IMG/VR virus record: IMGVR_UViG_3300042879_004946
Span: 1-64,000 of that record
Direction: 5' to 3' (one strand)
DNA from: a virus
Length of the DNA stretch: 64,000 bases
Of this stretch, positions 1-36,881 are shown piece by piece. The translations under genes were made by a program, and so were the position numbers. The first letter of the stretch is position 1; each line of letters starts with the position of its first letter. The notes beneath the pieces are model-generated. The model saw only the letters and a list, made by a program, of their open reading frames with translations. It searched no databases and was not told the DNA's origin.

Positions 1-311
1 ACTTTACCGATAGAGGTTGTATTTTTGGCATCACCAAATTTAGTAATACCTTTGATGTAGTCTAAAACTTGATAACCATTTTTAGTTAAAAAATCGGTAA
101 CTTCTTTTTCAACGTTAGAAACAGGGCCAGATTTTTCTTTTTTTCCTAATGGTATGTAAATACGATAATAATTTCTATCGTGTTCAAATTCATCACCTAA
201 TTTTTTAAAAATATCTACATATCTTTCACGATTAAAGTTTTTAACGTAATTTCTAAATTGGGATGGTTTTAAAGCCTCTTGTAACAGAATTTTATGAATT
301 AATTTTTTCAT
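1..311 (-). CDS. Partial hypothetical protein with virion-protein-type leader (MKKLIHKILLQE...), runs off the window start
   Basis: Manual translation from ATG at 311 on the minus strand: MKKLIHKILLQEALKPSQFRNYVKNF...; ATATTTAT motif just upstream. Confidence 0.7.
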   Translation of the reverse strand, partial: MKKLIHKILLQEALKPSQFRNYVKNFNRERYVDIFKKLGDEFEHDRNYYRIYIPLGKKEKSGPVSNVEKEVTDFLTKNGYQVLDYIKGITKFGDAKNTTSIGK

Positions 312-1334: not shown

Positions 1335-1568
1335 AAATTTCAATCCTTTCGTTTATGGGTCATCTCCAGCTACCGCTGGATTAAGTTATCTAGCATCTCC
1401 GTTGTAAATACCTTTCGTTTATGGGTCATCTCCAGCACAAACAATTAACCATTGAGGTTATCTCTAGTTGTAAATACCTTTCGTTTATGGGTCATCTCCA
1501 GCCGCTTTATTCACGAATGTTACGTTGTTTCTGTTGTAAATACCTTTCGTTTATGGGTCATCTCCAGC
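1335..1568. CRISPR. CRISPR-like mini-array 1: three identical 36-nt repeats, one degenerate terminal repeat, three 30-nt spacers; no cas genes in the window
   Basis: GTTGTAAATACCTTTCGTTTATGGGTCATCTCCAGC at 1401-1436, 1467-1502, 1533-1568; degenerate copy 1335-1370 (last 26 nt identical); unique 30-nt spacers 1371-1400, 1437-1466, 1503-1532; repeat ends can base-pair. Confidence 0.85.
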
Positions 1569-1891
1569 ATACGCACGCATAAGTCTTTGATTTCTTGTTC
1601 ATTAAGACGAAATTCTTGATTTAATTTTCTCCAAATTTTATCATAATCAACTAATAAATAAGGTTTTTTTTTATCTCTATCCGCATCATCCACCATTAAA
1701 GTAACCCCGCTTTTATCCTTATATAACATTAAACCTGGATTATTTTCCGAAGGAACCACCTTTAAATTGGACATAATTTCATAAAGAAATTCTTCAGCGG
1801 GGGAAAATTGTTTAGTATTACCAACCAATTCTTCAGCCCAATCAAAATCATCAAATTCTTCTTTTAATATTTTTCTTATAAGGTTTTTCAT
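1520..1891 (-). CDS. Array-linked small protein, paralog A (123 aa); C-terminus encoded by the repeat plus first spacer
   Basis: ORF with MKNLIRKILKEE leader; nearly identical to 1952-2329 and 36099-36473. Confidence 0.85.
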   Translation of the reverse strand: MKNLIRKILKEEFDDFDWAEELVGNTKQFSPAEEFLYEIMSNLKVVPSENNPGLMLYKDKSGVTLMVDDADRDKKKPYLLVDYDKIWRKLNQEFRLNEQEIKDLCVRMLEMTHKRKVFTTETT

Positions 1892-1904
1892 ATTTTATAA
1901 ATAT

Positions 1905-2006
1905 CAGGTTAACATTTTTCGTTTATGGGTCATCTCCAGCTCAAATCAACTTCAATCAAAGTCCGATTCAGCTGTCAATACCTTTCGTTTATGGGTCATT
2001 TCCAGC
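1905..2006. CRISPR. CRISPR-like mini-array 2: repeat, 30-nt spacer, degenerate repeat
   Basis: GCTGTCAATACCTTTCGTTTATGGGTCATTTCCAGC 1971-2006; spacer 1941-1970; degenerate repeat 1905-1940. Confidence 0.8.
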
Positions 2007-2329
2007 ATACGCACGCATAAATTACTGATTTCTTGTCCATTAAGGCCAAATTCTTGACGTAATTTTAACCAAATTTGACGATAATCAACCCATAAATAAG
2101 GATTTTTTTCATCACTATCCACACTATCCGCCATTAAAGTAAGCCCGCTTTTATCCTTATATAACATTAAACCTGGATAATTTTTTGAAGGAACCGCCTT
2201 TAAGTTTGACATGATTTCATACAAAAATTCTTCAGCGGGTGAAAATTGTTTGGTGTTACCAACCAATTCTTCTGCCCAACCAAAATCATCAAATTCTTCT
2301 TTTAATATTTTTCTTATAAGGTTTTTCAT
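1952..2329 (-). CDS. Array-linked small protein, paralog B (125 aa)
   Basis: Near-identical paralog; ends LEMTHKRKVLT-AESDFD, with the tail derived from the spacer. Confidence 0.85.
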   Translation of the reverse strand: MKNLIRKILKEEFDDFGWAEELVGNTKQFSPAEEFLYEIMSNLKAVPSKNYPGLMLYKDKSGLTLMADSVDSDEKNPYLWVDYRQIWLKLRQEFGLNGQEISNLCVRMLEMTHKRKVLTAESDFD

Positions 2330-19475: not shown

Positions 19476-22400
19476 TTATATTATAAACCAATTTGATCCA
19501 TCGGTAATAAATGTTATCGATGCGTTCACAACTGTTACGGTTGCCGTAGATGTACCATCTATAGTTTGTCCACCAGATGTGTTTACAATCAAATTAGGGG
19601 CTCCGCCTATTTTTTTAATAGTTACTTTAGCATTACCGTTATTTGGTAAGGTAACATTAAAGGTGCCACCACTTGTGTTACACAATATTATTTGCTCACC
19701 AGTGGTTGCACTACTAATATAATTATTTAATGGTTTCACTATTGAATAAGAACTACCACCACCTAGGGTAGATGAATCTCGGTATTTAACTTCACCACTA
19801 CTTGAATCTCTGACCAATATTTGTGTTAATGCATCATTATTTGCTGGGGTTGAATTTATGTTTAAACTTGAAACATATACAAAATCACTGGATGTTCCGG
19901 AAATACCTTGGCCACCTAAAACAACTGAACGATCACCTGTAACCGTGGAATTTGTGGAGTGTATAAAAGAAGCTATACCTGATACAGTACTACCTGAACC
20001 TGAAGCAAATGAACCGTAACCCAATGCTATGGTGTTAATACCTTGTGAGTGTGAATAATCACCCATACTTAGCGTATTGAGACCTTCAGCGTGTGAACCA
20101 ATACCTAAAGCTTTGGTTACTTCACCTTCGGTGTGTGAATGACTGTTAGATATAATTTGGTCAGCACCAGTTGGCAGTACATTTGAAGGGACACCCACAA
20201 GAGTACCCGAATTAATAAGTGCATCTTGTAATGTTATTATGGTGTTAGTGCCATTCCAATTAACGGAACTAATATTAAGATAACTTAAAGTCACACCATC
20301 TAATAAGATAACCGTATTTGAGAATTCTGTAGTAACGTCCCCATAACTAGTATTTAAAGTTAAAACACCAGCTAAAACAGAATCTAAGGTGTACGCATAT
20401 ATTCCTGTTGCCGTACTTAAACCTTCTGAGTGTGAACCATAACCAAGTGACGAAGTTGTCAACCCTTCCGCGTGTGATCTCTCACCAACTGCGTGTGAAC
20501 CATCACCTTCTGCGTGTGAATAATTACCAGCTGTTTTACTGCCTCTACCTTCTGCGTGTGACCATGAACCTGATACTAGTGTAGCATATCCCTCAGCGTG
20601 TGAATAAGATCCTGATGATATTGCTTCTTGACCTTCAGCGTGTGAATAATCTCCTATTGCTCGAGTGTTATCTCCTTCAGCATGTGAGTACTCTCCTTTT
20701 GCTTGAGCAAGATTTCCTTCAGCATGAGATGCAATTCCTGATGCTATTGATAGATTTCCTTCAGCATGTGAATAATCACCAGCAGCAACCGTAGTATTAC
20801 CAAAAGCAAAACTGGTTATTCCTGTTGCACTGGAACCAAAATTTTGAATTGAATCGTGAATTGTTATAGGAGAACATCCGTGTAAATTTGAAACATAGAT
20901 ATCTGAAATACAATTTGCAGAAGTATTACCTGTGAAAACATAAGATGAAGGTACTGACGCACCAATTTGTTTTGCAATAACAATAAGTGATGGTGAATCG
21001 GGTCTTGTTGGTGTCGTCAACCCACTTAAAGCGGTTAATTGAACATATTGACTATTTGATGAAAAATAAAATTGAACATAATCATTTGCCTCTAGTTCAA
21101 ATATAAGAGAAACAAAGGGTAATTGATAAGTACTATTAGAGACTAATCCTAAAGTTGAAGAACTTCTAGTTACAGGATTTCCGTTTACTTCCGCCCAAAT
21201 AGTGACCAAAGCATCGGTTCCCTGAGTTTTTTCTATTTGAGGAGAATAACCAATTTCATAAACACCTTTATTAAAAACTTTAATTTTACTGTTATCGACT
21301 ATGGTAATACCGTTACTTAATTCCGTTTGGTTATAAGTCCAAACTGTTGATGTATTTGCTGCAGTAACTGGAATGTTTCCTGTATTTGAAAAACTTCCGT
21401 AATAATTTAAAGCGTATCCACTTAAAGAAGTTGTAAACCCTGGTATTGATAGGGAACCGTTTTGACGATTAAGAGTTAATATACCCGTTGTGTTATTATA
21501 CGTACCGCCAGTCACATAATAATCAGTTCCTGTACTGCCAGAACCACCTGTTGATACAGCCCATCTTGCATTACCAGAAGCATCAGAAGTTAAAACATAA
21601 CCATTGGTTGCCCCAGAAGTCATCTGGAAGTTAGTGGTTATAATTTTTGTTGTTGCTGTTAATGTGGTGAATAAAGAACTACCGTCTGCATTTAACCACG
21701 CTGTCTGTGTTCCTGCATTATTTTCTATAATAATATTTTTATCCGTATCACTACCAGTACCACCTCTAAACTGAACACCATCTAAAGTAGAGTTTGTTAC
21801 AATTTCTGGGTTTGTTGAATTATTATACGCTTGTTGAAGTGTTGTTGTTGATAGGCCACCAGTACCCCCTAAAAGTTCACCAAATTTAGATACCGGGGTA
21901 AATACTGCATAACTACTATTTGTTAACGGTTGACCGTCTGCAACAATATCATTTCTCACTGAAATAATACCGATTAAGATGCCAGTATTTTTGGCATTTG
22001 GGTAAACAACGAATGATTCGGTTTGTATACCAGCTACCGCCTCCGTTAGACTACCATAATTTGTTTGACCATAAAGAATGTTTAAAACACCTGTTGGGTA
22101 TAAATACACTCTTTGATTACTAGCGTTATCACTATTAGCAGCACCCATGCTAGTTATAGCACCGTTAACGTCATATTTTGTTGGGTCGATTACCGATACT
22201 GACGAACTTGTACCACCTGTTTGTGTTCTATAAAAAAATGATGCAGGTACTTTTGCTGATATACCTACACTATTTGGGTTTAATTCATTTGTAACCCAAC
22301 CAATTCCATTACCCCAAAGAGTTCCTGATGAAATGTTAATATTTAAATTAGAACCATTTGGTGACACTAAAACACCTTCATTTATTAATTTTATTGGTGA

Positions 22401-24926
22401 CCATAAATCGCGTAACGATGACATCGGTGATACATCATAATCAACCGTGTTATTCACATTAAGTATTGTTGTTCTATTTGGGTGAACTACCTTACCTAAA
22501 AATATATTTTCCCTTCTTTGTTGTGGGGTTGGGAATGAAGTTTGTTGATATAGAGTACCCCCACTATTAACTAATAAATAAGTTGCGTCTGCTGATGTAA
22601 GGTTAGGTAACGAGATATTCGTACCACCACTATAATAAATGTTTAACACCAAAGGGTTTGTTGAATACTCATAAGTGTTATATACAATCCAACCCCTCAT
22701 TTGGGATACATTTATAGTTGTTGTTGACGCAGTTGTTGCACCTGTATAATAATAAGTACCTGTCGATATGACATTACCTAATAACACATTAACCTCTTGT
22801 TGTGTTAAACTTTGTAACGGATTTTCATTTTCAATTTTAACGTAAATTTTACCGTTTACTGGGTCGGAACTTAAGCACCACCCAATGGTTGAAATTCTTG
22901 AGGTTAATGCAATTGAATTCGGGTTATTTGTTATACCACCATCAATAGTATCAGATAAAAATAATTCTTGACCCACAGTAAACCCACTTGTGTTTAAATC
23001 CCTAACAATACCAAAATTGGTCATAAAACCAAACCCGCCGTTTGGTATATTATGAGTTGCTACACCTGAACTTTGTGCTAAACTATCGGTAAAAGTAAGA
23101 CCTAATTTAGATGCGTTAGCTAATGCAACTGTAGGTATACCTCCAGTCGCTCCTGTAATATGGAGAACTTGTCCGTTATTAATTTGAACCCCGGTTTGAT
23201 TATAAATTCTAATTAAAGATTCTTGACCGATATTAACAGTAACATCATTACCACTAGTTATCGGTTTATAAGATAAAGCATTTTCATTATAATCAAAATA
23301 TAGTGTACCACCAGTTATTGAAGGTATTGTAGGGTTAATATTAAAATCAATATAATTTACTGGTGATAAAGCTACAGCACTTAAAGTTGTTGCACTTATG
23401 GAACCGTTAACAGTTAGTCCAGTAAAAGTATTAATAAAAACATTTAACGGTGCTTGACCTTGATTTTGAGATATGGTTAATTTATTTGCATCATTATAGG
23501 TAAAACCTGTAACGTATGTATCAATTCCTGTTACTGTACCACCAGTTAAAAATCCCGGGATTGTAACCGAACCATTTTGTCTATTGAGTGTTAATGTACC
23601 ATTAGAATAAGTACCACCTGTTACATAATAATCGGTAAACCCTGTAACAACAACATTAACATTATCAGTTCTGGTTAAAGTTAAATTACCAGTATTTGGA
23701 TTATAATTACCGCTACTTAAATAAATGTCGGTAAATCCTGTTAAAAACCCAGAAACTTGAAACGAACCACCTACATTATTAAAAAATGTTGCAACACCAT
23801 TACTAGGGTTGTAGGTACCGCCCGTAACAGTAATGTCACCCGCTAAAATACCTAAATTTTGAGTTAAAGGTGCAACACCATTATTTTGGAAAATAGTTAA
23901 ATCGTAAGTGCCTGTATTAAATGTAAAACCAGTGACAAAAGTATCCGCACTTAATAAACCACTTATTGAAACTGAGCCATTTTGACGGTTTAGTGTTAAA
24001 ACACCATTGGAGTAGGTACCACCTGTAACAAAATTATCTGTATCTGTAGTACCAGTTAAAAATCCTGTTATAGTTACTAAACCATTTTGTCTGTTAAGTG
24101 TTAATGTACCATTAGAATAGGTACCACCCGTAACAAAATTATCTGTAATACCTGTTATAGTAACAGAACCATTTTGCCTATTAAGAGTTAATGTACCACT
24201 AGAAAAAGTACCACCTGTGACAAAATTATCTGGGTCTATAGGTAGACCTAAATATGTAGATGCGGATAAACTACCATTGATAGTTAAACCTGTAAAATTA
24301 TTTATTGAAACCGTTAAAGGTGTTAAACCCTGGTTTCTATTTATTGTTAAATTATTATTAGAATATGTGAAACCCGTTGTGAAAGTATCTGTTGTTCCAG
24401 TTAAAAAACCAGATACACTTACTGAACCATTTTGTCTATTTAATGTTAAAGTTCCGTTTGAATAGGTGCCGCCTGTAACATAATAATCAGGAATACCAGT
24501 TAAGTTTGAACCATCACCATAGTAGGTTGTTGCTGATATATACGATAAAGAGTTTATTGGATCCCAAACGGTTATTGGTGAACAACCATGCAGGTTTGAA
24601 ATATATAAATTACTTACACAACTTGCTGAAGTATTACCAGTAAAAATTGCAGTCGTTGAAAATCCAGAAATTGAAATGTTAACGCCGTCATTTCTGTTTA
24701 AAATTAAAACACCTTCGGAATAAGTACCGCCCGTAATAAAAGTATCAGTAGTTCCGGTTAAGAATCCAGATATCAATAAACTAACACCATCATTTCGACC
24801 TAAAGTTAAAGTACCACTAGAATAGGTACCACCTGTAACATAGATATCAGTGCCAGTTGAACCGGTGTTACCTGTATCTACGATAAAAATTTTAGTTATA
24901 TCCCCTTGTTGACAAAAATTACTCAT
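19476..24926 (-). CDS. Long tail fibre/adhesin-like protein (1816 aa)
   Basis: More than 10 D(N/Y)(F/Y)VTGGTYSNGTLTLNRQNG repeats; 14-residue SHAEG repeats (YadA-head-like beta-roll). Confidence 0.75.
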   Translation of the reverse strand: MSNFCQQGDITKIFIVDTGNTGSTGTDIYVTGGTYSSGTLTLGRNDGVSLLISGFLTGTTDTFITGGTYSEGVLILNRNDGVNISISGFSTTAIFTGNTSASCVSNLYISNLHGCSPITVWDPINSLSYISATTYYGDGSNLTGIPDYYVTGGTYSNGTLTLNRQNGSVSVSGFLTGTTDTFTTGFTYSNNNLTINRNQGLTPLTVSINNFTGLTINGSLSASTYLGLPIDPDNFVTGGTFSSGTLTLNRQNGSVTITGITDNFVTGGTYSNGTLTLNRQNGLVTITGFLTGTTDTDNFVTGGTYSNGVLTLNRQNGSVSISGLLSADTFVTGFTFNTGTYDLTIFQNNGVAPLTQNLGILAGDITVTGGTYNPSNGVATFFNNVGGSFQVSGFLTGFTDIYLSSGNYNPNTGNLTLTRTDNVNVVVTGFTDYYVTGGTYSNGTLTLNRQNGSVTIPGFLTGGTVTGIDTYVTGFTYNDANKLTISQNQGQAPLNVFINTFTGLTVNGSISATTLSAVALSPVNYIDFNINPTIPSITGGTLYFDYNENALSYKPITSGNDVTVNIGQESLIRIYNQTGVQINNGQVLHITGATGGIPTVALANASKLGLTFTDSLAQSSGVATHNIPNGGFGFMTNFGIVRDLNTSGFTVGQELFLSDTIDGGITNNPNSIALTSRISTIGWCLSSDPVNGKIYVKIENENPLQSLTQQEVNVLLGNVISTGTYYYTGATTASTTTINVSQMRGWIVYNTYEYSTNPLVLNIYYSGGTNISLPNLTSADATYLLVNSGGTLYQQTSFPTPQQRRENIFLGKVVHPNRTTILNVNNTVDYDVSPMSSLRDLWSPIKLINEGVLVSPNGSNLNINISSGTLWGNGIGWVTNELNPNSVGISAKVPASFFYRTQTGGTSSSVSVIDPTKYDVNGAITSMGAANSDNASNQRVYLYPTGVLNILYGQTNYGSLTEAVAGIQTESFVVYPNAKNTGILIGIISVRNDIVADGQPLTNSSYAVFTPVSKFGELLGGTGGLSTTTLQQAYNNSTNPEIVTNSTLDGVQFRGGTGSDTDKNIIIENNAGTQTAWLNADGSSLFTTLTATTKIITTNFQMTSGATNGYVLTSDASGNARWAVSTGGSGSTGTDYYVTGGTYNNTTGILTLNRQNGSLSIPGFTTSLSGYALNYYGSFSNTGNIPVTAANTSTVWTYNQTELSNGITIVDNSKIKVFNKGVYEIGYSPQIEKTQGTDALVTIWAEVNGNPVTRSSSTLGLVSNSTYQLPFVSLIFELEANDYVQFYFSSNSQYVQLTALSGLTTPTRPDSPSLIVIAKQIGASVPSSYVFTGNTSANCISDIYVSNLHGCSPITIHDSIQNFGSSATGITSFAFGNTTVAAGDYSHAEGNLSIASGIASHAEGNLAQAKGEYSHAEGDNTRAIGDYSHAEGQEAISSGSYSHAEGYATLVSGSWSHAEGRGSKTAGNYSHAEGDGSHAVGERSHAEGLTTSSLGYGSHSEGLSTATGIYAYTLDSVLAGVLTLNTSYGDVTTEFSNTVILLDGVTLSYLNISSVNWNGTNTIITLQDALINSGTLVGVPSNVLPTGADQIISNSHSHTEGEVTKALGIGSHAEGLNTLSMGDYSHSQGINTIALGYGSFASGSGSTVSGIASFIHSTNSTVTGDRSVVLGGQGISGTSSDFVYVSSLNINSTPANNDALTQILVRDSSSGEVKYRDSSTLGGGSSYSIVKPLNNYISSATTGEQIILCNTSGGTFNVTLPNNGNAKVTIKKIGGAPNLIVNTSGGQTIDGTSTATVTVVNASITFITDGSNWFII

Positions 24927-29564: not shown

Positions 29565-31862
29565 ATGGCACAATTTTTTACTCGCCCAAACATAGAAGAT
29601 AGAACCATGGTACAATACAGTTCAATGGTAATTAATTTATCAGGAACTACGGCAATCGCAAACCCTGGGTATTTAAAAATTAACCAAGGTGCGGCACCAG
29701 GTTTAGTTGCAACATCTTTAGATTTTGATGGTACCGTTGTTTGGGGCCCAGTTAGTGGTTTAAGTTGGTCGATATCAGCTTGCACCTCACCCTTATACGT
29801 TAATAATATTGTTGCATGTCCGTCATCAGCTGGTACCATTGTGGTACAATCTGGAATCTTAACGGTTAACGGGGCTTTACAATTAAACCCAACATTATCA
29901 GGTGGTACCGCTGGTGACCGTCTTTTAGTTATAGATAGTAATGGTTATGTTAAAGTTGGTCAAACAGGTACTTCTATAAGTTCTTTAAGTTATAACAATA
30001 ACAACTTAACCTTAACCTTAAACGATGGTAGTATTTTTACTGCAACCATTAACACAATGACAGGATTAACTATTAATGGCAATTTAACCGTTAGTGGTAA
30101 CACAAGAATTGTTGGTAATACTTCTGTAATTGGTAATTTAAATGTTACTGGTAATACTTCTATTAACGGTTCAGTAAGTGCGACAACTTATTATGGTGAT
30201 GGTTCTAATTTAACAGGTATTCCTGACTACTACGTGACTGGTGGTACTTTTGGTGGTAATGTTTTAACTTTAAATCGCCAAAACGGTTCTGTCACGATTG
30301 CAGGTTTTACCGGTTTTACTGATAATTTTGTAACTGGTGGTACTTATAATTATAGTACCGGAACTTTAACATTAAACAGGCAAAACGGTTCTCTTTCAGT
30401 TTCTGGTTTAAGTTTTACAGGCAACACTTTAGGTACTTGTATTACTGATATATACGTTCAAAATTTATATGGTTGTAGTAATCCTATAACAATAGGGAGT
30501 TCACTTAAAAGTTCTGCAGGTGGCTCTACCGCGGCAGGAACATCAGCTTTTGCTTTCGGTAACAATGTTGCTGCGACAGGTAACTTTTCCATGGCTCAAG
30601 GTAATGGAACATCAACTGCTGGTGGAACATATGCTCATGCAGAAGGTGCTAATACAACCGCTAGTGGGTTAGGTTCTCACGCAGAGGGGTTATCAACAAC
30701 ATCATCAGGTCAATATGCACATGCTGAAGGTAGAGGGACTGTTGCATCAGGAAACTATTCACACGCACAAGGGTTATTTACAAACGCAACAACAGAAGGA
30801 ACTTTTGCATCAGGTTCAGGTTCAACCGCATCGGGAGCAAATTCTTTTATCCATTCAGTTGGATCAACGGTTTCTGGTAATAGGTCAGTTGTTTTAGGTG
30901 GTTTTGGAATAAACGGAACATCAAATGATTTTGTTTATGTCCCAAGTTTAAACATTAACACAACACCAACAAATAATGATTCAAATGCTCAAATTTTATC
31001 AAGAAATTCTAGTACCGGTAATATTGAATATACTAATCTATCTTTATTAACCGCTTATACTGATACTTTTGTAACCGGTTTTACTTATAACAATGCAAAC
31101 AGGTTAACAATAAGTAGAAACGGGAGTCAACCTGATTTAACGGTTAATATTAACAGATTAACTGGATTAACTGTTACAAACGGTTTATCCGCAGATACCT
31201 TAACATTAACCACAATGGCGGTAACTGCAAGTACTAGCACCCAAGCTTTAGTTAGAAATACAACAACTGGTGTTGTTGAAAGTCGACCATTTGGTTTGGA
31301 AAGTATTATTCTTGTAACTTCAGCTTCAACCATACCAATAGCAGGCGTTGGGCCAAGTTTCGATTCGATTAAAGGCATACCACAAGGCCAAGTTATTACG
31401 GGTTATACCACTATATATAGTAACAATGTTTCCCAATCCGGACCAACAGTAAACACTAACTTTGGTACATATGATAATACAACAGGTTTATTTACGACAA
31501 ATGTGAATGCGACTTTAATGTTAAACGCATATATACATTTAAAACCAGACACTAGCACATCAACCGCGTGGTCACTTTCGGGGACTGGTGAATTTGGTAT
31601 TGGTATTTGTCCTAATAACGCAACTGATATTTATGTTGGTGATTATCAAACAATAATCCCTGACCCTGATACGGCACAATATGTTTATGAATTGTATGGA
31701 GCAAACGCACCAAGAACAAATCAAATAGATATCAGTATTAGCACTGTAATTTACGCAGCTTCTAATTCTAGTTTTAGAGTTAAAGTTTTAAATAAAACTG
31801 ATAGAAATTATACTGGTGTTCAAGGTGACGGTATCAGATTTTCAATAACAAGAATAATGTAA
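29565..31862 (+). CDS. Tail fibre-like protein, paralog 2
   Basis: VTGGT..LTLNRQNG and (S/A)HAEG repeats shared with 19476-24926. Confidence 0.7.
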   Translation: MAQFFTRPNIEDRTMVQYSSMVINLSGTTAIANPGYLKINQGAAPGLVATSLDFDGTVVWGPVSGLSWSISACTSPLYVNNIVACPSSAGTIVVQSGILTVNGALQLNPTLSGGTAGDRLLVIDSNGYVKVGQTGTSISSLSYNNNNLTLTLNDGSIFTATINTMTGLTINGNLTVSGNTRIVGNTSVIGNLNVTGNTSINGSVSATTYYGDGSNLTGIPDYYVTGGTFGGNVLTLNRQNGSVTIAGFTGFTDNFVTGGTYNYSTGTLTLNRQNGSLSVSGLSFTGNTLGTCITDIYVQNLYGCSNPITIGSSLKSSAGGSTAAGTSAFAFGNNVAATGNFSMAQGNGTSTAGGTYAHAEGANTTASGLGSHAEGLSTTSSGQYAHAEGRGTVASGNYSHAQGLFTNATTEGTFASGSGSTASGANSFIHSVGSTVSGNRSVVLGGFGINGTSNDFVYVPSLNINTTPTNNDSNAQILSRNSSTGNIEYTNLSLLTAYTDTFVTGFTYNNANRLTISRNGSQPDLTVNINRLTGLTVTNGLSADTLTLTTMAVTASTSTQALVRNTTTGVVESRPFGLESIILVTSASTIPIAGVGPSFDSIKGIPQGQVITGYTTIYSNNVSQSGPTVNTNFGTYDNTTGLFTTNVNATLMLNAYIHLKPDTSTSTAWSLSGTGEFGIGICPNNATDIYVGDYQTIIPDPDTAQYVYELYGANAPRTNQIDISISTVIYAASNSSFRVKVLNKTDRNYTGVQGDGIRFSITRIM

Positions 31863-31877
31863 AAAATATAATATAAA

Positions 31878-33911
31878 ATGTCATTAAATTTAAGAAGTTC
31901 AGGAACCCCTTTAACACAACCACAATTAGATAGTAATTTTACTTTTCTTTTTGGTAGAGATATTACTGGGACAACTGTATCTGGAAATACGGTTTTTTTA
32001 AATAAACAAAATGGTACAAGTTTTAGTTTTAATATACCTTCTTTTACAGGAAACACTTCAGCTTCTTGTATAAATGATTTATATGTTAGTAACATTCACG
32101 GATGTTCACCAATAACAATTCATGATTCTATTCAAAGTGTTGGTTCTTTCGCAAATGGTTTTCGTAGTTTTGCTTTTGGTGATGATGATAATACAGCTAG
32201 TGGTGATTTTTCTTTTGCAATTGGTGAGACTACAATAGCAAGTGGTAATTCTTCACACGCGGAAGGTGTAAGTACAACAGCAATTGGTTATGGTTCTCAT
32301 ACAGAAGGCAATAGCACAGAAGCTATTGGTAATTATTCACACGCGGAAGGTGAAGGTACAACATCGAATGGCATATCTTCACACGCGGAAGGTTTTACTA
32401 CAACAGCAACTGGTGATTATTCACATGCGGAAGGATCGACAACACTAACCACTGGTGCTTATTCTCACGCAGAGGGTAGGGGTACTAAAACAGAAGGTGA
32501 TTATTCACATGCAGAAGGTGAAAATACGATAGCAACCGGTGAAAGATCACACGCGGAAGGTCGTGATACGCGGTCACTTGGTTGGTGGTCACACGCAGAA
32601 GGATCTGGGTCTTATACTGGTGTATATGGTTATACAGTCACAAACACAACAAACGGTGTAATCACGTTAGATTCTACCTATGGTAATGTTGTGTCACAGT
32701 TTACCGGTATGACTTATGTTATGACTAACGCTTCAGGGATGTATGGTACAATAAGTGGGACACCGACTTTTGATGGTACTAATACAATAGTATATATAAA
32801 TGAAACTGATGGTGGAGAAACGATAATAGCACCAATGGAAAATCCACAAGCTGAATCGGCCGACCAAATATTAGGCGGTTATTATTCACATGCGGAAGGT
32901 CAAGGCGCAATAGCACGTGGTGACTATTCACATGCGGAAGGAGGGCTTCAATCTTTTTCATCCCCAGGAGGTGGTACAATATTTACAAGAACAGTTGCCA
33001 ATGGATCTTATTCACACGCAGAAGGTATTGCAACTAAAGCTTTAGGTAATAGTTCACATTCACAAGGTATTTTAACAGAGGCTATTGGTACCTATTCATT
33101 TGCGTCAGGAAGTAATTCAAAAGCTTATGGGTTCACTTCCTTCATACACTCAACTGATTCTATCTTAACTAGTGGTGCAACAAATTCGGTTTTATTGGGC
33201 GGTCAAAACATCACGGGTTCATCAAGTAATACTGTTTATGTTCCGAATTTAAATATTAATTACCAACCAAACACACATACAGGTACAACTTCGCAAGTTT
33301 TGGTTAGAGACAGTGTTACAGGTAATGTTGAAGTTAAAAATATTGGAAATGTTTATTATTGTGCTTTATTTATAAATTCTAGTAGTCAACCACCTGCAGG
33401 TATTATACCGTCGGTAACAATAGCTAATGGTGGTATCGCTGATAGAGGTAAAAGAATTACTGGTTTTACACAGATAGTATCAAATGGTGTTGTCTCTAAT
33501 TCAACGGGAGTAGGTAATTATGTGACATCACCACCAAGTTGTAGTTTCGGTACTTTTAATAATAATAGTGGAGTTTTTAGTATAACACAAGCAGGTCTTT
33601 ATCTTATTGAAGGATCGATACATCTTAAATCGGATAATGATTCTTCTGTTTATTGGCAATCAGTTTCGGCAGGTACTTTTGGTTTAGGTATTCACCCGGC
33701 AAATGATACTGATATTTATGCAGGAAATTATATGGCAGTATTACCTAATGTACAATCAGAAATTGATGTAACAGTAAGTACTTTAATATATGCTGACGGT
33801 ATAAATGATTTTGTCTCTCTAAAACATTTAAATTGGACTAATAGAAGTTATAACGGTACAGTTTACACTAGTAGTGATGGCATCAGGTTTTCAATAACAA
33901 AAGTGTATTAA
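31878..33911 (+). CDS. Tail fibre-like protein, paralog 3
   Basis: About 12 SHAEG-type repeats; FTGNTSASC..LYVSN.HGCSPIT module; C-terminal domain similar to 29565-31862 (DGIRFSIT). Confidence 0.7.
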   Translation: MSLNLRSSGTPLTQPQLDSNFTFLFGRDITGTTVSGNTVFLNKQNGTSFSFNIPSFTGNTSASCINDLYVSNIHGCSPITIHDSIQSVGSFANGFRSFAFGDDDNTASGDFSFAIGETTIASGNSSHAEGVSTTAIGYGSHTEGNSTEAIGNYSHAEGEGTTSNGISSHAEGFTTTATGDYSHAEGSTTLTTGAYSHAEGRGTKTEGDYSHAEGENTIATGERSHAEGRDTRSLGWWSHAEGSGSYTGVYGYTVTNTTNGVITLDSTYGNVVSQFTGMTYVMTNASGMYGTISGTPTFDGTNTIVYINETDGGETIIAPMENPQAESADQILGGYYSHAEGQGAIARGDYSHAEGGLQSFSSPGGGTIFTRTVANGSYSHAEGIATKALGNSSHSQGILTEAIGTYSFASGSNSKAYGFTSFIHSTDSILTSGATNSVLLGGQNITGSSSNTVYVPNLNINYQPNTHTGTTSQVLVRDSVTGNVEVKNIGNVYYCALFINSSSQPPAGIIPSVTIANGGIADRGKRITGFTQIVSNGVVSNSTGVGNYVTSPPSCSFGTFNNNSGVFSITQAGLYLIEGSIHLKSDNDSSVYWQSVSAGTFGLGIHPANDTDIYAGNYMAVLPNVQSEIDVTVSTLIYADGINDFVSLKHLNWTNRSYNGTVYTSSDGIRFSITKVY

Positions 33912-36098: not shown

Positions 36099-36473
36099 AT
36101 GAAAAATCTTATAAGAAAAATATTAAGGGAAGAGTTTGATGATTTTGATTGGGCAGAAGAATTGGTTGGTAACACCAAACAATTTTCACCCGCTGAAGAA
36201 TTTTTGTATGAAATTATGTCCAATTTAAAGGCGGTTCCTTCGGAAAAAAATCCAGGTTGGATGTTATATAAGGATAAAAGCGGGGTTACTTTAATGGCGG
36301 ATAGTGTGGATAGAGATAAAAAAGATCCTTATTTATGGGTTGATTATGATGAAATTTGGTTAAAATTACGTCAAAAATTTGGTCTTAACAATCAGGAAAC
36401 CAAAGACTTATGCGTGCGTATGCTGGAGATGACCCATAAACGAAAGGTATTGACAGCAGCCTTCATCGGCTAA
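36099..36473 (+). CDS. Array-linked small protein, paralog C (124 aa from ATG 36099)
   Basis: Near-identical to paralogs A and B; ends LEMTHKRKVLT-AAFIG. Confidence 0.85.
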   Translation: MKNLIRKILREEFDDFDWAEELVGNTKQFSPAEEFLYEIMSNLKAVPSEKNPGWMLYKDKSGVTLMADSVDRDKKDPYLWVDYDEIWLKLRQKFGLNNQETKDLCVRMLEMTHKRKVLTAAFIG

Positions 36474-36523
36474 ACCCTTCGTACAAAGCTGGAGATGACC
36501 CATAAACGAAAGGTATTGACCTG
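36422..36523. CRISPR. CRISPR-like mini-array 3: repeat, 30-nt spacer, degenerate repeat
   Basis: GCTGGAGATGACCCATAAACGAAAGGTATTGACAGC 36422-36457; spacer 36458-36487; repeat 36488-36523 ending GACCTG; reverse complement of the array 1/2 repeat. Confidence 0.8.
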
Positions 36524-36533
36524 ATATTTATAA
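36523..36533 (+). promoter_or_regulatory. Recurrent (G/A/T)ATATTTAT motif, candidate phage late promoter (example copy)
   Basis: Same motif shortly upstream of starts at 311, 1891, 4437, 5060, 6657, 7255, 11414, 12892, 14419, 17282, 19437, 26491, 28418, 35708, 36537, 39872, 40177. Confidence 0.65.
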
Positions 36534-36536
36534 AAT

Positions 36537-36881
36537 ATGAAAAATCTTATAAAAAAAATATTAAAAGAAGAAATCGCCACCAGCAAGAGTTTTGAAGACT
36601 TTGCTGAAAAAAGATTTAAAGGTGCGGAAAAAATCACCAATAATGCAAAAGAAAAAGGTGGTCCAGCAATGTTAACCTATCACCATTTTAGAGTTAAATT
36701 ACCTTACTATAAAAAAGCAATGGAAGGTAAATTTGATTTGGAAGAATCAAAAAAAGAATTTAAAAAATATCTAGATGAATTATGTGACTTATCTGAAAAC
36801 GTTGAAATGGGACAAGTAGAATTTCAAAAATTAGTTGGTCTTATAGAAGTTTTAGGTGAACTCATAATCAAACAAAAGTAA
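36537..36881 (+). CDS. Leader-bearing hypothetical protein
   Basis: MKNLIKKILKEE leader near-identical to the array-linked paralogs; the rest is unrelated. Confidence 0.8.
   Translation: MKNLIKKILKEEIATSKSFEDFAEKRFKGAEKITNNAKEKGGPAMLTYHHFRVKLPYYKKAMEGKFDLEESKKEFKKYLDELCDLSENVEMGQVEFQKLVGLIEVLGELIIKQK

Follow-up and report, generated by a model that had tools for sequence, protein, structure and literature searches.

A 36-bp CRISPR-type repeat translated as the C-terminal end in a large family of small phage genes

The described systems closest to the locus reported here are the CRISPR arrays of Flavobacteriia, the mini-arrays carried by viruses and the solitary repeats termed Racrs. In F. 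columnare, transcription of the type VI-B arrays begins at the leader and proceeds into the array, and they receive their spacers in trans through the Cas1 of the type II-C system, whose repeats share just the leader-distal motif with those of VI-B (PMC8092290); type II integration is directed by about 10 bp of the leader and by both ends of the repeat (PMC6895254). Virus-borne mini-arrays (PMC6858448; PMC11656645, the latter a review of CRISPR in mobile elements) hold 1-5 spacers without cas genes, show spacer turnover between close relatives and are presumed to use the adaptation and effector proteins of the host; they are intergenic, with a host-like leader or none (PMC6858448). Racrs (PMC10651486) are small, non-coding repeat mimics carried by phages, nearly identical to the repeats of the host, present in several copies per genome and transcribed in sense orientation. 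Within the accessible portion of the literature on virus mini-arrays, Racrs, phage crRNA-like regulators (bioRxiv 10.1101/2024.10.29.618823) and CRISPR in mobile elements, an in-frame fusion of an array with a conserved gene was not found.

The stretch of DNA analysed, referred to as the window, comprises the first 64 kb of an IMG/VR virus record of 108,457 bp with a GC content of 30.7%. The phage, which comes from a lake, is T4-like, its major capsid and portal genes both being of T4 type, and the closest relatives of its capsid are those of phages of Microcystis, Flavobacterium and Rhodothermus and of uncultured huge phages. A T4-type portal gene containing an intein and an HNH endonuclease domain was seen outside the window, at L052:1411-5814 (minus strand), where the adjoining 1043-aa ORF has a LAGLIDADG domain; in the window, two very large ORFs (19476-24926, minus strand, and 29565-33911, plus strand) contain 42-nt (14-residue) tandem repeats with YadA-head-like motifs and probably code for tail fibres or adhesins. 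Five paralogous genes, each of about 123 aa, are present in the 108-kb record, three of them inside the window (A, B and C), and all of them lead into a 36-nt repeat with spacers of 29-30 nt and further repeats behind it. The features of the window are the following.

1266-1293, no strand assigned: GC-rich hairpin followed by a T run, downstream of array A, read by eye
1335-1568, minus strand: array A, with four repeats (1533-1568, 1467-1502, 1401-1436, 1335-1370) and three 30-nt spacers
1335-1370, minus strand: terminal repeat of array A, reading LEMTHKRKD and then a stop
1520-1891, minus strand: paralog A, 123 aa, running into array A, from the ORF list
1889-1904, minus strand: promoter-like motif with the ATG of paralog A, a 16-nt junction that is the same after array C
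1904-1906, minus strand: in-frame TGA of array B, formed by the two last bases of the repeat and the first base of the promoter-like motif
1905-1940, minus strand: terminal repeat of array B, reading LEMTHKRKMLT and then a stop, its last three bases unlike those of the internal repeats
1941-1970, minus strand: spacer of array B, 30 nt, identical to the last spacer of the L009 array (L009:3459-3488)
1952-2329, minus strand: paralog B, 125 aa, with repeat 1 of array B encoding the residues (L..T) that end its structured part
1971-2006, minus strand: first repeat of array B, read in the frame of paralog B, with the synonymous change GAG>GAA
36099-36473, plus strand: paralog C, 124 aa, running into array C
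36422-36523, plus strand: array C, with repeat 1 (36422-36457) and the terminal repeat on either side of one 30-nt spacer
36488-36523, plus strand: terminal repeat of array C, reading LEMTHKRKVLT and then a stop
36522-36524, plus strand: in-frame TGA of array C, overlapping the start of the promoter-like motif of the gene at 36537-36881

The 24-nt core of the repeat occurs eight times in the window, against none expected in shuffled sequence, and 13 times in the 108-kb record. Repeat and spacer together have a period of 66 nt, which corresponds to 22 codons, and because the unit is of 66 bp the frame runs on through each open 30-nt unit. The other two frames of the repeat reach early stops, thus a spacer that is not of 30 nt ends translation in the next repeat; indeed, the unrelated C-terminal tails of the proteins are the three frames of the next repeat, giving the same peptide if in frame and otherwise AGDDP-stop or WR-stop/WK-stop. 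In paralog B, the tail and the stop fall in the spacer of the array. The 3′ end of the internal repeats is ACARC, that of the terminal repeats CCTG, CTTA or ATTA, and the terminal repeat of array B has neither the leader-distal ACARC motif nor the hairpin discussed below. A renewed in-frame translation confirmed the peptides and the substitutions listed for the terminal repeats of arrays B and C in the preliminary description: the two repeats differ at four bases, namely AAG>AAA, TTG>TTA and two in GTA>ATG. Downstream of array A, the hairpin and T run probably terminate the transcript of the gene and its array, as read from their sequence. The 16-nt promoter-like motif that ends in ATG, present in the window at 1889-1904 and 36524-36539, occurs also at G000 39859, 74856 and 101561; the genes that follow it often share the N-terminal sequence MKNLI(R/K)KILKE, the rest being unrelated (36537-36881 and 74163-74843; many loci match only over residues 1-22). 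Motif and shared N-terminus look like a mobile start cassette.

In their make-up these are CRISPR arrays, with near-identical 36-bp repeats, unique spacers of uniform size, one of them of foreign derivation, polarised growth and a degenerate distal repeat. Repeat length, GYTG..ACARC ends and spacers of 30 nt with a foreign composition fit the Bacteroidota 36/30 class, and a generic pattern search of 401 genomes located arrays of this class next to Cas13b in G037 and G261 and next to Cas1 and Cas9 in G399. The predicted fold of the B and C repeats (-7.9 kcal/mol, z = -3.0) has an end stem of 4 bp, an inner stem and small internal loops, resembling two Cas13b repeats, whereas the Cas9-linked repeat is unstructured; the repeat of array A and the repeat of a second subfamily, termed YNL, fold unlike the Cas13b repeats. 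Ungapped identity is 19-20/36 to the two Cas13b-linked repeats and 15-17/36 to the one Cas9-linked repeat examined (G399). The YNL-type repeat had been considered as type II-C-like, an assignment that was abandoned since ungapped identities do not separate II-C from VI-B.

The similarity to the VI-B/II-C arrays of Flavobacteriia (PMC8092290) thus includes the 36-bp repeats, the 30-bp spacers, the GYTG..ACARC ends, the degenerate leader-distal last repeat, the hairpin shape of the B/C repeat and the tolerance of chromosome-derived spacers. Unlike them, the phage arrays have only 1-5 repeats, they have neither cas genes nor an AT-rich non-coding leader, a coding gene being present instead and the first repeat being translated, and no cas gene was found next to a repeat identical to theirs. 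As in virus-borne mini-arrays, the arrays are short, lie in a viral genome and differ in spacers between close relatives, and neither Cas1 nor Cas13b was found in five phage records that bear the family, one of which is 100% complete at 296 kb. They differ from mini-arrays (PMC6858448) in being fused in frame to a conserved gene, and from them also in the lack of a near-identical repeat in a host array: a search of 185,579 species genomes and of JGI metagenomes for host arrays with this repeat core returned only gene-fused phage arrays, and no array with the repeat was found in four Bacteroidota genomes that bear a protospacer. The host may be lacking from the sampled collections.

The fusion is not a peculiarity of this phage. 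A word-based search recovered 128 homologs, all with the motif LC.RMLE.THKRKV.T followed by unrelated tails, and all of the 51 distinct arrays with the repeat core that were collected from viral and metagenome contigs are fused to a gene of the family and have 1-5 repeats, with no long host-type array among them. A profile search of 1.84 billion representatives led to 1,451 clusters; among the 150 matches listed, nearly all keep the C-terminal motif [WM]-[LVM]-x-E-x-[YFH]-[NK]-[LR]-x-[GK]-x-T, and some two dozen repeat it with a period of 22 residues in their tails, in many repeat variants. In the YNL subfamily, whose repeat encodes LDEVYNLRGVTP, 41 of the 48 genes inspected as DNA bear arrays, and over the whole family arrays are found in more than 85% of about 105 genes so inspected. 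The fusion of gene and repeat is therefore old and family-wide. The de novo birth of an array in this phage, as proposed in the preliminary description, is not supported, since the fusion is old, the repeat resembles those linked to Cas13b and Cas9 and uses codons foreign to the phage, internal and terminal repeats differ at the leader-distal motif, and the array-less members of the subfamily are decayed arrays.

Single-repeat states also exist, such as the lone full-length repeat of L176 and a fusion protein with a lone repeat in L016; in the latter (L016:4503-5780), the family domain is joined to the C-terminus of a protein of about 300 aa, a homolog of which is the ORF cut by the start of the window (3-311, minus strand). 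Tandem multi-domain members with an internal repeat-coded motif were seen at L049:746-1441 and in P0121 (760 aa, five domain matches), and these probably arose by fusion of tandem gene-array-gene units. No relative of the gene was found in GenBank phages at the DNA or protein level, Pfam gave no match to it and no Rfam family matched the repeat region. Searching with the AlphaFold model, Foldseek found nothing in PDB at E <= 0.001, the best Z in the wide VIA-align search was 4.4, which is under the meaningful level, and the fold matches in BFVD were uncharacterised proteins of uncultured phages and no others; the fold therefore gives no function for the family protein.

That the repeat is constrained both as nucleic acid and as protein had been proposed from five substitutions between repeats, which are too few for this purpose: they show no codon bias by themselves (3/4 at third positions, p of about 0.1). 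Over the 51 related arrays, synonymous changes are likewise only weakly in excess (8/21 and 5/15 distinct changes versus 24% expected, p = 0.10 and 0.27, respectively). The claim is nevertheless strongly supported by the rare codons, the array-less relatives and the predicted fold. The repeat makes use of codons that are rare in the phage, namely CTG (0.9% of Leu), CGA (4.4% of Arg), AAG (10% of Lys), ACC (17% of Thr) and GAG (16% of Glu), and among 18 genes that were found through protein search and not through the repeat these codons are kept in 13-18, except for GAG, kept in 9. GTG and CGT, the two codons just upstream of the repeat, are likewise uncommon and conserved, which by analogy would fit the leader of about 10 bp that is read by type II integrases (PMC6895254). 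A slight excess of codon identity in the repeat over the gene body (0.74 vs 0.68) was dropped in favour of the rare-codon argument.

In three relatives whose arrays are lost, namely L023/P0100, L015:3427-3807/P0102 and L184, the peptide is conserved but is written in synonymous codons, most of them preferred ones. In P0100, TTA, ACT, AGA, AAA and GTT code for the same residues, and relics of a second repeat as well as the same terminator context are still present; P0102 retains H-K-R-x-V with three synonymous changes, and L184, which belongs to the YNL subfamily, shows the same retention of the peptide with relaxation of the codons. The C-terminus of array-less homologs, singled out from the start as the point to check, is homologous and not unrelated, and by this check the idea of the preliminary description is not refuted. 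AlphaFold predicts residues 30-123 of paralog A with a pLDDT of 96-98, and the repeat-coded residues L109-T119 cover the last part of helix 98-113, a turn and the beginning of strand 119-122, so that in the model they sit inside the fold. Thus the codons are fixed by the nucleic-acid function and the residues by the protein, the variation of the repeat being limited from both sides.

New units are added to the arrays on the side of the gene, which makes the terminal repeat the oldest. Indeed, in four pairs of related arrays (G000-B/L009, L015/L098, L105/L093 and L016/L093) the distal spacer is common and the extra spacers lie on the gene side; the single spacer of array B is the last of three in L009, which has two more towards the gene. 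Read from the gene, the ACARC end is the leader-distal motif, and therefore the gene holds the position of the leader and the terminal repeat is the oldest; likewise, in the genuine Cas13b array of G037 the degenerate repeat is at the far end, with its 5′ half kept. Spacers are exactly 30 nt in 59 of 79 cases and 29-31 nt in 77, they are unique except for those common by descent, and their mean GC content is 37%, compared with 30.7% for the phage. One of them, located outside the window (72507-72536), is a 30/30 copy of a gene of four freshwater Bacteroidota genomes (L057:4515-6230) that codes for a secreted repeat protein of 571 aa whose C-terminal domain is of the sorting type. This spacer has the same sense as the host mRNA, thus its transcript could not guide Cas13b to that mRNA, and the protospacer does not have the F. 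columnare acquisition motif on the leader side. No protospacer was found in IMG/VR for spacers A1 and C1, the comparison of 147 spacers with all the DNA gathered here gave the Bacteroidota gene as its single match, and none of the family spacers compared was found to target a rival virus.

Recombination also takes part in the evolution of these loci. Repeats are sometimes unequal inside one array (L011, L016, L010), which points to recombination between paralogs besides integration, and in contigs of four lake metagenomes a recombinant was found in which the 5′ part of paralog B is joined to the 3′ part of paralog A, linking window position 1636 to 2102 with 27 other letters between them and with deletion of array B. 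The spacers of array A are identical in contigs from several of these four metagenomes, each contig spanning a part. No zero-spacer form was seen among the metagenome contigs over the region, which break at the repeats, and a pattern search of IMG/VR found no zero-spacer allele; P0032 and P0041, whose contigs measure about 500 bp, terminate right at the repeat and are candidate zero-spacer proteins.

The position of the stop was analysed in 40 complete arrays, which reduce to 18 distinct downstream contexts, against a background of 7.1% stops per codon. A stop immediately follows the 11 repeat-coded residues in five of the 18 contexts (binomial p = 0.007), with TGA, TAA and TAG all in use and just the last three bases of the repeat altered, and it lies within codons 10-14 in 11 of 18; three contexts share the ending TTA and may not be independent, and the stop-bearing contexts may go back to only two or three independent events. 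Among 120 homologs, 16 (13%) end on the terminal-repeat stop. In 79 family spacers, in-frame stops (46%) are about as frequent as stops in the other frames (42%), and 15 of 41 first spacers carry one; since spacers are not enriched in stops, read-through to later repeats is common and the backstop is in use. All five spacers of the window (1371-1532, 1941-1970 and 36458-36487) have an in-frame stop, probably by chance. Elsewhere in the genome the promoter-like motif is not preceded by CCTG, therefore the stop belongs to the end of the repeat and not to the motif. The YNL subfamily has a different pattern, with terminal repeats that keep about 23 nt, spacers of 27 to 33 nt and stops at varying codons past the break, and the clean stop at the repeat end is thus specific to the subfamily of the window.

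The terminal repeat is therefore a working gene end and a translation backstop. It could instead be an ordinary decayed last repeat, whose stop derives from AT-rich downstream DNA and shared ancestry; this is consistent with the similarly 3′-decayed terminal repeat of the G037 Cas13b array, with the scattered stops of the YNL subfamily and the background of 7% per codon, and with the uncertain independence of the three TTA contexts. The exact placement of the stop at codon 12, reached with three different stop codons, the change confined to the last three bases of the repeat and the share of family proteins that end there argue against it and make this explanation unlikely. As to the claim that the terminal repeat represents the ancestral gene end, it is correct in that this repeat is the oldest unit and a functional end; on the other hand, the array-less members of the window's subfamily are nested among array-bearing genes and none of them ends in KVLT-stop.

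The explanation that we prefer, and that appears reasonably probable, is that the gene and its mini-array form one unit, in which a host Cas1-Cas2 writes spacers at the junction of gene and repeat and the terminal repeat acts as the backstop. Direct support for it comes from the anatomy, the growth polarity, the double constraint, the placement of the stop and the family-wide spread, all of which are shown; we infer the host enzyme that writes the spacers, the fate of the transcript and the ancestral state. The last 11 codons of the gene are a 36-bp repeat of the Bacteroidota class seen with Cas13b (VI-B) and Cas9 (II-C), with the gene body in the place of a CRISPR leader. A host enzyme is proposed because the phage has no cas genes, and a Cas1-Cas2 of presumed type II-C would most likely insert the 30-bp spacers at the gene/repeat junction. 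Each insertion would duplicate the repeat, so that the new copy encodes again the end of the C-terminal helix and the strand and the fold is kept, and it would shift the older units downstream. The oldest repeat, without ACARC and hairpin and with a stop in the gene frame at or near its end, serves as translation backstop and probably goes back to a time when the gene had its end within a single repeat. Against this explanation stand the host repeats, only 15-20/36 identical without gaps, the searches that found no host array with the core, the unequal repeats, the array A and YNL-type repeats that fold unlike those of Cas13b, the sense of the only known protospacer and its missing acquisition motif, the different pattern of the YNL subfamily and the few independent events to which the stop-bearing contexts may go back. 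A more far-reaching version, to be held tentatively, is that the repeat is a self-repairing landing site for the host spacer writer inside a protein gene, where insertion regenerates the C-terminus, adds a new random tail and gives the transcript one more guide; the phage could in this way soak up adaptation, as in the sink for host Cas1-Cas2 suggested in the preliminary description, arm host Cas13b with its own guides or vary the tail.

The repeats might also be mainly RNA decoys on an abundant mRNA that, like Racrs, tie up the host effector, with the spacers as by-products and the protein perhaps having an anti-defence role. This overlaps with the preferred explanation and does not exclude it. 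Gene and repeat have the same sense, the B and C copies fold like Cas13b repeats, five gene copies are present in 108 kb, and viral repeat mimics that inhibit CRISPR are known (PMC10651486). Racrs are lone non-coding repeats at least 90% identical to that of the host, whereas the repeat described here is coding and in most cases has real spacers behind it, its counterpart in a host was not found and the repeat of array A folds poorly; a role mainly as decoy is hence improbable.

More doubtful still is the proposal that the native end of the gene came to mimic a host repeat and then began to receive spacers, the terminal repeat being the seed. It agrees with the homology of the C-terminal motif with and without arrays, and with its internal position in two-domain proteins (L049), with the place of the repeat-coded residues in the predicted fold and with the stop that the terminal repeat carries for its gene, fused to the promoter motif of the next one. 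When Cas1-Cas2 integrates a spacer, the target repeat is copied without change. Off-target ('neo-CRISPR') integration at look-alikes of the leader-repeat junction, reportedly described by Nivala et al. (2018, Nat Microbiol), is said to duplicate the target site exactly as well, and the idea of Cas1-Cas2 starting an array at a non-CRISPR site is common to both cases. Unlike in neo-CRISPR, terminal and internal repeats differ here at the leader-distal end (CCTG, CTTA or ATTA versus ACARC), where a seed would be expected to be copied exactly, and the layout is family-wide, not sporadic. Moreover, the supposed seed does not have the leader-distal motif that type II integrases use (PMC6895254, PMC8092290), it is written in codons foreign to the phage, array-less genes of the subfamily are decayed arrays that retain relics of a second repeat and the same terminator context, no zero-spacer allele was found in IMG/VR, and the two-domain proteins are explicable as fused tandem paralogs.

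The copying of repeat-spacer blocks from host arrays by recombination or template switching, which would make the terminal repeat a hybrid with a native phage 3′ end, fits its repeat-like 5′ and phage-like 3′ parts, has been proposed for spacer gain in leaderless phage mini-arrays (PMC6858448) and draws on recombination that the unequal repeats and the paralog A/B recombinant prove to occur, but it is very unlikely given that no host array with the repeat was found in the collections searched, that 51/51 arrays are gene-fused and that related arrays differ by single gene-side units.

What is new in the gene-array unit preferred here is its family-wide scope, the evidence from rare codons and their relaxation, the structural placement of the repeat, the test of polarity and the statistics of the stops. 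Phage mini-arrays and repeat mimics have been known solely as non-coding elements, and here 36 bp double as part of a folded protein; this dual use spans hundreds of gene clusters, with several copies per genome, in a very large and undescribed family. For annotation, it implies that such genes are called with variable, meaningless C-terminal tails and that CRISPR finders would report orphan arrays. If the landing-site reading is true, CRISPR adaptation would here, for the first time, be seen to write into an expressed protein-coding gene by conserved design. If host Cas1-Cas2 writes at these sites, leaders need not be non-coding, the family would offer a natural system for the minimal needs of a type II-C integrase, and phages may exploit or divert the adaptation of their hosts, beyond interference.
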